From: Eledone cirrhosa | Lineage: Eukaryota | Length of the DNA stretch: 64,000 nucleotides | Assembly (NCBI GenBank): GCA_964016885.1 | Contig: OZ024756.1 | Span: 7,254,001 to 7,318,000, forward strand | Direction of reading: 5' to 3' | In this document: in pieces, positions 39,634-43,055 of the stretch | Layout of the letters: every line of letters starts with the position of its first letter | Position numbering within the stretch: the stretch's first letter is position 1 | Translations under genes and position numbers: made by a program | Notes under the pieces: generated by a model | Told to the model about the DNA's origin: nothing | Databases searched by the model: none | The model's input: the letters and a program-made list of their open reading frames with translations, nothing else

Positions 39634-41483
39634 TGAAGATAGACATAGAATATTCGAAAATATTCTGTATGTTTATAATAAACATTAATCGCTATAGAAT
39701 AGAATACGTCACGTATTACAATTAGATTCTCGATAAAAGCAAGGGAAGTAACCTACGCGTTTCATTCTTATTAGAAATCTTCAGGATTACATATCCAGTG
39801 CTTTTATCGAGAATGACACAGCTAGAGACTTATAGAATACTTAGCTGTGTACAGGAACTGGTTTGAAAGAGCGGTTGCCGATCCGGCAGAAATTAGAAAT
39901 TGGATTAAATGCTCTGAAATAGCGATATATATGTGAAGATAGACATAGAATATTCGAAAATATTCTGTATGTTTATAATAAACATTTTGAAGACCTAATC
40001 GCTATAGAATAGAATACGTCACGTATTACAATTAGATTCTCGATAAAAGCAAGGGAAGTAACCTACGCGTTTCATTCTTATTAGAAATCTTCAGGATTAC
40101 ATATCCAGTGCTTTTATCGAGAATGACACAGCTAGAGACTTATAGAATACTTAGCTGTGTACAGGAACTGGTTTGAAAGAGCGGTTGCCGATCCGGCAGA
40201 AATTAGAAATTGGATTAAATGCTCTGAAATAGCGATATATATGTGAAGATAGACATAGAATATTCGAAAATATTCTGTATGTTTATAATAAACATTTTGA
40301 AGACCTAATCGCTATAGAATAGAATACGTCACGTATTACAATTAGATTCTCGATAAAAGCAAGGGAAGTAACCTACGCGTTTCATTCTTATTAGAAATCT
40401 TCAGGATTACATATCCAGTGCTTTTATCGAGAATGACACAGCTAGAGACTTATAGAATACTTAGCTGTGTACAGGAACTGGTTTGAAAGAGCGGTTGCCG
40501 ATCCGGCAGAAATTAGAAATTGGATTAAATGCTCTGAAATAGCGATATATATGTGAAGATAGACATAGAATATTCGAAAATATTCTGTATGTTTATAATA
40601 AACATTTTGAAGACCTAATCGCTATAGAATAGAATACGTCACGTATTACAATTAGATTCTCGATAAAAGCAAGGGAAGTAACCTACGCGTTTCATTCTTA
40701 TTAGAAATCTTCAGGATTACATATCCAGTGCTTTTATCGAGAATGACACAGCTAGAGACTTATAGAATACTTAGCTGTGTACAGGAACTGGTTTGAAAGA
40801 GCGGTTGCCGATCCGGCAGAAATTAGAAATTGGATTAAATGCTCTGAAATAGCGATATATATGTGAAGATAGACATAGAATATTCGAAAATATTCTGTAT
40901 GTTTATAATAAACATTTTGAAGACCTAATCGCTATAGAATAGAATACGTCACGTATTACAATTAGATTCTCGATAAAAGCAAGGGAAGTAACCTACGCGT
41001 TTCATTCTTATTAGAAATCTTCAGGATTACATATCCACTGCTTTTATCGAGAATGACACAGCTAGAGACTTATAGAATACTTAGCTGTGTACAGGAACTG
41101 GTTTGAAAGAGCGGTTGCCGATCCGGCAGAAATTAGAAATTGGATTAAATGCTCTGAAATAGCGATATATATGTGAAGATAGACATAGAATATTCGAAAA
41201 TATTCTGTATGTTTATAATAAACATTTTGAAGACCTAATCGCTATAGAATAGAATACGTCACGTATTACAATTAGATTCTCGATAAAAGCAAGGGAAGTA
41301 ACCTACGCGTTTCATTCTTATTAGAAATCTTCAGGATTACATATCCAGTGCTTTTATCGAGAATGACACAGCTAGAGACTTATAGAATACTTAGCTGTGT
41401 ACAGGAACTGGTTTGAAAGAGCGGTTGCCGATCCGGCAGAAATTAGAAATTGGATTAAATGCTCTGAAATAGCGATATATATA
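39634..41483 (-). repeat. Six tandem 310-bp retrozyme-like units (family J); HHR on minus at 39748, 40058, 40368, 40678, 40988, 41298
   Basis: TGAAGATAGACATAG at 39634, 39934 (first unit has a 10-bp deletion), 40244, 40554, 40864, 41174. Confidence 0.93.
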
Positions 41484-43051
41484 TTCAGAGCATTTAATCC
41501 AATTTCTAATTTCTGCCGGATCGGCAACCGCTCTTTCAAACCAGTTCCTGTACACAGCTAAGTATTCTATAAGTCTCTAGCTGTGTCATTCTCGATAAAA
41601 GCACTGGATATGTAATCCTGAAGATTTCTAATAAGAATGAAACGCGTAGGTTACTTCCCTTGCTTTTATCGAGAATCTAATTGTAATACGTGACGTATTC
41701 TATTCTATAGCGATTAGGTCTTCAAAATGTTTATTATAAACATACAGAATATTTTCGAATATTCTATGTCTATCTTCACATATATATCGCTATTTCAGAG
41801 CATTTAATCCAATTTCTAATTTCTGCCGGATCGGCAACCGCTCTTTCAAACCAGTTCCTGTACACAGCTAAGTATTCTATAAGTCTCTAGCTGTGTCATT
41901 CTCGATAAAAGCACTGGATATGTAATCCTGAAGATTTCTAATAAGAATGAAACGCGTAGGTTACTTCCCTTGCTTTTATCGAGAATCTAATTGTAATACG
42001 TGACGTATTCTATTCTATAGCGATTAGGTCTTCAAAATGTTTATTATAAACATACAGAATATTTTCGAATATTCTATGTCTATCTTCACATATATATCGC
42101 TATTTCAGAGCATTTAATCCAATTTCTAATTTCTGCCGGATCGGCAACCGCTCTTTCAAACCAGTTCCTGTACACAGCTAAGTATTCTATAAGTCTCTAG
42201 CTGTGTCATTCTCGATAAAAGCACTGGATATGTAATCCTGAAGATTTCTAATTAGAATGAAACGCGTAGGTTACTTCCCTTGCTTTTATCGAGAATCTAA
42301 TTGTAATACGTGACGTATTCTATTCTATAGCGATTAGGTCTTCAAAATGTTTATTATAAACATACAGAATATTTTCGAATATTCTATGTCTATCTTCACA
42401 TATATATCGCTATTTCAGAGCATTTAATCCAATTTCTAATTTCTGCCGGATCGGCAACCGCTCTTTCAAACCAGTTCCTGTACACAGCTAAGTATTCTAT
42501 AAGTCTCTAGCTGTGTCATTCTCGATAAAAGCACTGGATATGTAATCCTGAAGATTTCTAATAAGAATGAAACGCGTAGGTTACTTCCCTTGCTTTTATC
42601 GAGAATCTAATTGTAATACGTGACGTATTCTATTCTATAGCGATTAGGTCTTCAAAATGTTTATTATAAACATACAGAATATTTTCGAATATTCTATGTC
42701 TATCTTCACATATATATCGCTATTTCAGAGCATTTAATCCAATTTCTAATTTCTGCCGGATCGGCAACCGCTCTTTCAAACCAGTTCCTGTACACAGCTA
42801 AGTATTCTATAAGTCTCTAGCTGTGTCATTCTCGATAAAAGCACTGGATATGTAATCCTGAAGATTTCTAATAAGAATGAAACGCGTAGGTTACTTCCCT
42901 TGCTTTTATCGAGAATCTAATTGTAATACGTGACGTATTCTATTCTATAGCGATTAGGTCTTCAAAATGTTTATTATAAACATACAGAATATTTTCGAAT
43001 ATTCTATGTCTATCTTCACATATATATCGCTATTTCAGAGCATTTAATCCA

Positions 43052-43055
<4 letters not shown>
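41484..43055 (+). repeat. Five tandem 310-bp units in inverted orientation; HHR on plus at 41612, 41922, 42232, 42542, 42852
   Basis: GTAATC-CTGAAGA-tTTCTaataAGAAt-GAAA-CGCG-TA-GGTTAC, enclosed by a 16-bp stem ATTCTCGATAAAAGCA/TGCTTTTATCGAGAAT. Confidence 0.93.

Follow-up and report, generated by a model that had tools for sequence, protein, structure and literature searches.

Two-armed, head-to-head insertions of a hammerhead repeat in (TA)n tracts of Eledone cirrhosa, with arms that end at two fixed sites of the unit, probably made by Penelope-like machinery

The array and its hammerheads

The window, as we call the whole stretch of DNA analysed, comprises 64,000 nucleotides of Eledone cirrhosa sequence (contig OZ024756.1, positions 7,254,001 to 7,318,000) and contains an array of eleven tandem 310-bp units that changes strand part-way along. 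The left arm (39634..41482, minus strand) is made up of 5.96 units with six hammerheads and the right arm (41484..43055, plus strand) of 5.07 units with five; the order, six minus units followed by five plus units, is the one an earlier note on this DNA had described. The units are also as nearly identical as that note maintained, with a single 10-bp deletion (around 39686/39687) and two SNPs (41038 and 42253) over 3.4 kb. The longest inverted pair of the window extends over 1575 nt and is 100% complementary, as rounded by the tool. Counting phases from the predicted hammerhead cleavage site (phase 0), all eleven units, in both arms, have a T at phase 182 (T182; 41521 on the plus strand), where the 38 other loci of our first sample have a C. 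Along the array the GC content is about 34%, and a long-ORF scan of the window found no ORF within the array.

The RNA-sense 3' end of the left arm, at 39634 on the minus strand, lies 130 nt past the hammerhead cleavage site (site A) and has no tail. That of the right arm, at 43053-43055 on the plus strand, lies 165-167 nt past the cleavage site (site B), and the 35-37 nt between the two sites (43019..43055, plus strand) form a tail that only the right arm carries, at its outer end. The arms meet head-to-head at 41475..41484, where the left arm ends at phase 131 and the right arm begins at phase 145, with a single extra base (41483) inside a TATATA patch. Simple repeat adjoins both array ends, in agreement with the TA-rich outer ends noted before: a 3.9-kb degenerate (TA/CA)n tract on the left (35741..39632) and (TA)23 on the right (43055..43100). 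With (TA)n on either side, a target-site duplication is not readable at the locus. Right beside the (TA)23 flank, at 43096-43558, 53-nt inverted repeats, 92% complementary and 357 nt apart, have a MITE-like appearance.

The first plus-strand hammerhead (41612..41654) is of type I by motif and pairing, with predicted cleavage after 41648. Read from the sequence, its helix I pairs 41612-41617 with 41649-41654, its core spans 41618-41624 and its GAAA is at 41639-41642; helix III consists of one pair with a palindromic CGCG loop, and a U-U lies at the base of helix II. Further cores on the plus strand were located by motif at 41928, 42238, 42548 and 42858, and the six hammerheads on the minus strand (39754..41334 as a set) at 39754-39784, 40064-40094, 40374-40404, 40684-40714, 40994-41024 and 41304-41334. 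Type I core and helices are thus present in 11/11 units, with predicted cleavage sites from 39754 to 41304 in the left arm, spaced at exactly 310 bp, and from 41648 to 42888 in the right arm. A 16-bp closing stem around the hammerhead (41588-41603 with 41661-41676, span 41588..41676, plus strand) recurs in every unit; the claim of such a stem is strengthened by the fold of the segment (z = -6.3), which none of 200 shuffles equalled.

Rfam at gathering thresholds gave no match in the window, so the hammerhead call rests on motif and pairing. In axolotl retrozymes, the one-pair helix III and the U-U at the base of helix II have been tied to weak cleavage of the monomer, and hammerheads with such features act weakly alone and better as dimers (Cervera and de la Peña 2020, PMC7229834). 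Self-cleavage is predicted here and, by analogy with the axolotl motifs, would be weak in the monomer. The dominant haplotype of sequencing run X1 differs from window positions 41615-41650 at six positions of the hammerhead; some of the changes leave helix I paired, and others lie in the variable core position or in loop II, or replace the U-U of helix II by A-U. Other hammerhead-like motifs, belonging to several different families, occur in the window at 7503, 31353, 35129-35157, 20900-20948, 4015-4042 and 50856-50883. Over the loci fetched, about 30 hammerhead motif types were found, which makes this a genome rich in hammerhead-bearing repeats.

A dispersed family with two end sites

One unit used as query against the 3.0-Gb assembly gave at least 306 matches in the 40 candidates scored out of 441, and 150 of these matches were listed. 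Copies varying in unit number and phase, which the earlier note had proposed to look for, are found genome-wide, and the alternative of a unit confined to a single locus is ruled out by them. Most loci lie less than 0.5% from the family type, in keeping with the young insertion that had been suggested. Our first sample consisted of the window and 38 other loci taken from the match list and is biased towards near-identical copies. Among these 39 loci, 24 have two complete arms, 10 have one arm, four have a short inverted piece that runs out into other sequence and one has an 11-nt inverted stub. Across all loci fetched, arm lengths range from 0.05 to 23 units.

The 3' ends of the arms fall into two clusters about 35 nt apart, A (about phases 125-139) and B (about 160-172), and are flanked by (TA)n, or by (TAA)n at locus L041. 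All 24 complete two-armed loci run minus-then-plus, that is, head-to-head, and in each of them one arm has an A end and the other a B end. Exact patterns of TA-joined ends have 108 matches for B and 226 for A, the A count including double counts. From C1 to position 124.6 Mb of C4, the region for which both end lists are complete, 79 A and 44 B ends form 31 neighbour pairs within 20 kb; 29 are divergent A+B pairs, 19 of them new, and two are same-strand A+A pairs. When 37 further ends were fetched, a classifiable second arm of the same family was present for 24, always as A+B; the remaining 13 have TA on both sides, another partner or incomplete sequence. With three more A+B loci (L102-L104), the total for 71 two-armed loci is 70 A+B, one B+B (L100) and no A+A (p = 6e-20 under an independent 50:50 choice per arm). 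The tail of about 35 nt is thus on one end only in 70/71 loci. The window locus is not special: a dispersed, young family of non-LTR retrozymes normally takes this inverted form.

Two further readings of the inversion can be set against these counts. An inversion created by fold-back reads or by assembly has in its favour that long palindromes between TA tracts assemble poorly, and that no contig of the four sequencing runs searched, out of 24 listed, spans the window junction. Against it, the flanks, arm lengths, end sites and private variants of the two arms do not mirror each other, and 71 classified loci with differing junctions obey one end rule that is foreign to read artefacts. Contigs of run X1 (mainly another haplotype, with T182 almost absent; its library is not on record) also contain TA ends of both the A and the B type, as well as further minus-to-plus joints, at a depth of 20-21, with a short side of 20-27 nt. 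An artefact is thus very improbable. Equally hard to credit are two independent back-to-back insertions into the same (TA)n, or inversion at the DNA level of part of one array. The family does target (TA)n, and at a few loci the partner of a retrozyme arm is an unrelated element; but there is no TA tract between the arms, the order is minus/plus in 24/24, the end classes are complementary and T182 is common to both arms, while a flip within one array cannot supply another 3' end that joins (TA)n at a fixed site.

Some loci stand apart from these classes. At L111 and L122 the arms consist of the 35-nt tail alone, which at L111 lies between two TA tracts. At L105:6870-6975, a different repeat is 78% similar over the A site and the start of the tail and has a (TA)n end at a similar distance; from its sequence it is possibly a sister family with the same signal. 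An array of at least 12 kb (G000:C1:217796815-217808928) carries a subfamily mark scattered in some of its units and appears as satellite-like growth of the retrozyme unit.

Priming, template and partner machinery

The A+B ends support the proposal, made in the earlier note, of two cDNAs primed from opposite sides of one break, and the arms themselves add to this. The rival reading is self-priming, as proposed for the inverted repeats of Penelope-like elements (PLEs; Arkhipova et al. 2013, PMC3846280): one cDNA folds and is copied back, and the endonuclease cuts the second end at the tail boundary. Fold-back of this kind would yield the minus/plus geometry, the shared variants and the one-sided tail; several junctions lie at unit hairpins (phases 183 and 213-250), and in some PLE pairs the open frames on both arms are of equal length. 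Three loci, however, have disjoint arms: L116 (phases 120-139 and 148-165), L139 (15-130 and 145-162) and L124 (220-130 and 120-165). In none of them is one arm contained in its partner, which means that neither arm was copied from the other, and simple fold-back as the sole route is excluded at these three loci. Furthermore, the longer arm is A in 12 and B in 12 of the 24 loci, the junction phases of paired arms are unrelated (mean distance 77.1, versus 77.5 at random), and the SNPs and the deletion in the window are not mirrored between arms. For the family as a whole we regard fold-back as unlikely, and priming from both sides of the break is the reading we prefer.

Of the 24 junctions, 16 lack filler, and in these microhomology averages 2.06 nt compared with 0.76 nt by chance (p = 0.0008); the other eight contain 1-24 filler bases. 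Junction phases are uniform (Rayleigh p about 0.74), which rules out the TATATA patch as the usual junction site: its mention in the earlier note is correct for the window, where the extra base 41483 lies in it, and fails as a rule for the family. Likewise, the stop of one arm lies near the start of the other, as a stop rule on the same RNA would have it, in just 5/24 loci (5.9 by chance). Short inverted pieces primed from non-TA flanks and ending near the stop of the main arm were observed at L034, L042, L051 and L059; the distance to that stop is about 11 nt or less in the last three and 70 nt in L034.

Whether both arms derive from one RNA was approached through rare variants. Five of 24 loci have a rare variant common to both arms, where 0.08 would be expected; in a wider set the number is 11 of 54 two-strand loci versus 0.53 expected, a count inflated by subfamily marks. 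The seemingly private variant of L101 is such a mark, with 325 genome matches and eight loci carrying it on both arms; the variant pattern of L103 is found in two places only, one L103 unit and one elsewhere. The many shared variants of L110 were left out, since a parsing effect or an older copy is suspected. By sequence comparison, the shared variants fit one RNA or one local RNA pool; they are mostly present in some units only, and gene conversion between arms could also produce them. Heterologous chimeras indicate that two RNAs can sometimes be used.

The form of the template is less certain than the two-sided priming. A linear monomer primed at B would give only 165 nt, so longer arms require a circle, an uncleaved multimer or later growth of short arms. 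The 5' ends show no accumulation at the cleavage site (4/48 within 10 nt, 3.3 expected). The 24-mer containing T182 has 17 exact matches in the genome, 11 at the window locus and six elsewhere that are never in adjacent units; its presence in all eleven units favours, as far as the sequence goes, a mutated monomer circle. Repeated non-fixed variants, which point to later duplication or multimer templates, are present in 11/34 long arms and absent from the other 23, and L036+37 contains a 10-unit repeat of variants. L031 and L032 share both junctions yet have 8.7 and 1.7 units, so the unit number changes after insertion. Of the rolling-circle copying of a 310-nt circular RNA put forward in the earlier note, the two-sided growth of cDNA is upheld and the circular template is favoured; we rate a circle as somewhat the better choice.

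The main competitor is two-end priming by PLE machinery on a linear multimer that is transcribed from a pre-existing array and stays uncleaved, with long arms growing by unequal exchange and no circle needed. The two features of weak monomer cleavage shared with axolotl retrozymes (PMC7229834) agree with it, as do PLE insertion in vitro that is independent of hammerhead cleavage (Frangieh et al. 2024, PMC11167929), the repeated variants in 11/34 long arms, the seven units separating L031 from L032, and the local amplification proposed by Li, Clavereau and Pollet (bioRxiv 10.64898/2026.07.22.740005). The 23 long arms without a repeated rare variant speak against a multimer, and so does T182 in all eleven units, as T182 units are adjacent nowhere else in the assembly, which leaves no candidate parent there; a parent array could be missing from the assembly, or short founder arms could have expanded. 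We consider the multimer a real possibility, though not the probable one. In retrozymes of this class, circles are reported to form by ribozyme cleavage and ligation rather than by back-splicing (PMC7229834). Among the sequencing runs listed with the unit there is no RNA run, and in contigs a circle looks the same as a tandem array. The unit was also seen in runs X4, X7 and X17: two runs labelled with other organisms contain it as a closed 340-nt contig (depth 7-26), and a wastewater run has a 191-nt piece of it, likely as carry-over of a very high-copy repeat.

The array contains no ORF for a reverse transcriptase and GIY-YIG endonuclease, as an autonomous PLE does, and the retrozyme is a dependant and not a PLE proper. 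The genome contains a PLE family with intact ORFs of 1278-1279 amino acids, many identical copies and multi-unit minus/plus arms, which has a hammerhead in its pLTR and a 59-nt tail encoding the start of the ORF. Its (TA)n ends number 13,052 of A type and 11,557 of B type; among its 100 and 89 ends within the first 42 Mb of C1, 39 divergent pairs lie closer than 3 kb, and 36 of these are A+B. An ATATCG motif opens both its tail and that of the retrozyme. A CX4CX2C motif precedes the GIY-YIG domain and, from the sequence, appears to match Neptune/Nematis as described. A second PLE family, with a 758-aa ORF, matches the retrozyme in 25 of 28 nt of the hammerhead and shows no visible A/B asymmetry over four paired loci. 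Extended similarity of the unit to either PLE was not detected in the comparison, which gave the 28-nt hammerhead for the 758-aa family and low-complexity sequence for the 1279-aa family.

Pfam found no family for the 1279-aa ORF and a sub-threshold KDM6 GATA-like match for the 758-aa ORF, with weak GIY-YIG and RVT_1 matches on fragments; the elements are called PLEs on the grounds of motifs, architecture and hammerheads. Head-to-head fusions join a retrozyme arm to a 3' end of the 1279-aa PLE at L052 (B with A) and L125 (B with B), and to that of the 758-aa PLE at L063; with more than 13,000 such PLE ends in the genome, these could be chance neighbours. The inverted, 5'-truncated head-to-head copy (24/24), the one-sided tail (70/71) and the (TA)n target are features of PLE-type insertion, and a PLE is the likely partner machinery.

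Other pieces of such elements lie in the window. A small head-to-head insertion of the 1279-aa PLE pLTR (24529-25041, 85-90% identity) has the architecture of the array, with a tail-less left end and a tailed right end, both in (TA)n, and a further piece of this pLTR is found at 49259-49725. Read from translation, 29365-30648 (plus strand) contains a PLE-like reverse transcriptase fragment, and 58628-63335 (minus strand) open frames like those of a non-LTR retrotransposon, with ORF1, endonuclease and reverse transcriptase in pieces.

Observed here are the build of the loci, their two end sites, the pairing of A with B, the scattering of a young family over the genome and the parallel pattern in a PLE with intact ORFs. 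We consider it probable that these reflect insertion of a non-coding hammerhead repeat, a non-LTR retrozyme, as two head-to-head arms at two fixed sites in (TA)n, by a borrowed Penelope-like reverse transcriptase-endonuclease that primes one cDNA from each side of the break, probably on circular or multimeric RNA. An array would be transcribed, and neighbouring hammerheads, as predicted dimers, would free 310-nt monomers, which may be ligated into circles. The PLE protein, probably a dimer, would bind the tail region and nick both strands of a (TA)n tract; priming would start at B from one 3' end and at A from the other, in most cases with a single RNA or local RNA pool as template. Each reverse transcriptase would then run on for a variable length, past the cleavage site, to yield arms of 0.05 to more than 20 units, before the cDNA ends are joined via 0-5-nt microhomology or a few filler bases; some arrays would afterwards gain or lose blocks of units. 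A more specific picture is that of a dimeric PLE protein on a single 310-nt RNA circle, priming both strands of the break with one subunit per tail end and with the polymerases chasing each other round the circle; this we put forward tentatively, at a little short of even confidence. If true, such a double rolling circle would account for the inverted repeats, one-sided tail and tandems of PLEs and would replace the self-priming model.

Comparison with known systems

In twin priming of L1, two primers from one break yield an inverted 5' part, joined by microhomology. Three loci are closely similar to this (L042, L051 and L059, with the inverted piece within about 11 nt of the main arm stop), while the main class differs in that its second primer is at a fixed site and its arms overlap many times in template coordinates.

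The array shares with animal non-LTR retrozymes (PMC7229834; bioRxiv 10.64898/2026.07.22.740005) a tandem, non-coding, low-GC unit of 150-450 bp in dispersed arrays, with one type I hammerhead per unit and weak features in common with the Amex1 and Amex2 motifs of axolotl. The family described here has the corresponding traits: a unit within the range of about 150-450 bp without LTR, a hammerhead in every unit, and dispersed copies from monomers to multimers. It differs in that most of its arrays are two-armed, targeted to TA and end at two fixed sites. The text available of PMC7229834 contains no mention of inverted, orientation or microsatellite, and that of bioRxiv 10.64898/2026.07.22.740005 no relevant one; neither two-armed retrozyme arrays nor a counted rule of one end at each site were found in the literature accessible to us, and supplements or subscription papers could hold cases.

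PLE insertions are the closer parallel, with an inverted, 5'-truncated copy, a 30-40-bp tail that is usually one-ended and (TA)n targeting (Craig et al. 2021, PMC8557442; PMC3846280). The array resembles them in its head-to-head inverted copy, one-end tail, (TA)n target and hammerhead, and differs in that it lacks an ORF and both arms are concatemers of the 310-bp unit. In addition, the counts made here turn the one-sided tail into a near-strict rule, and three loci exclude self-priming. MRC1 and other non-autonomous Chlamys elements are likewise non-coding dependants of PLEs with multicopy head-to-tail insertions (PMC8557442); they are green-algal and are reported to resemble autonomous families at the 3' end, and the passage describing them does not mention inverted arms. 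The purified Poseidon PLE protein of Anolis, a predicted dimer, cleaves and extends both strands (PMC11167929). As in our family, two internal start sites bound the tail and the target is AT-rich; that study describes no start-site difference between strands, and coupling within one insertion was outside its scope. The genomic record presented here would, at the sequence level, imply that two start sites are coupled within one insertion.

The origin of tandem and inverted PLE insertions has been described as unresolved (PMC8557442), and the dependence of animal retrozymes on PLEs has so far rested on shared ribozymes, distribution and phylogeny (bioRxiv 10.64898/2026.07.22.740005). Here, a retrozyme family bears the PLE integration footprint directly and in countable numbers, and both its A+B pairing and its loci with disjoint arms narrow the mechanism down to two coupled priming events, as opposed to fold-back by itself. 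With a 310-nt RNA and the intact young ORFs of a PLE from the same genome, a small in vitro system could be set up. The footprint was already known for PLEs; it is new as a retrozyme variant and useful for understanding the PLE mechanism.
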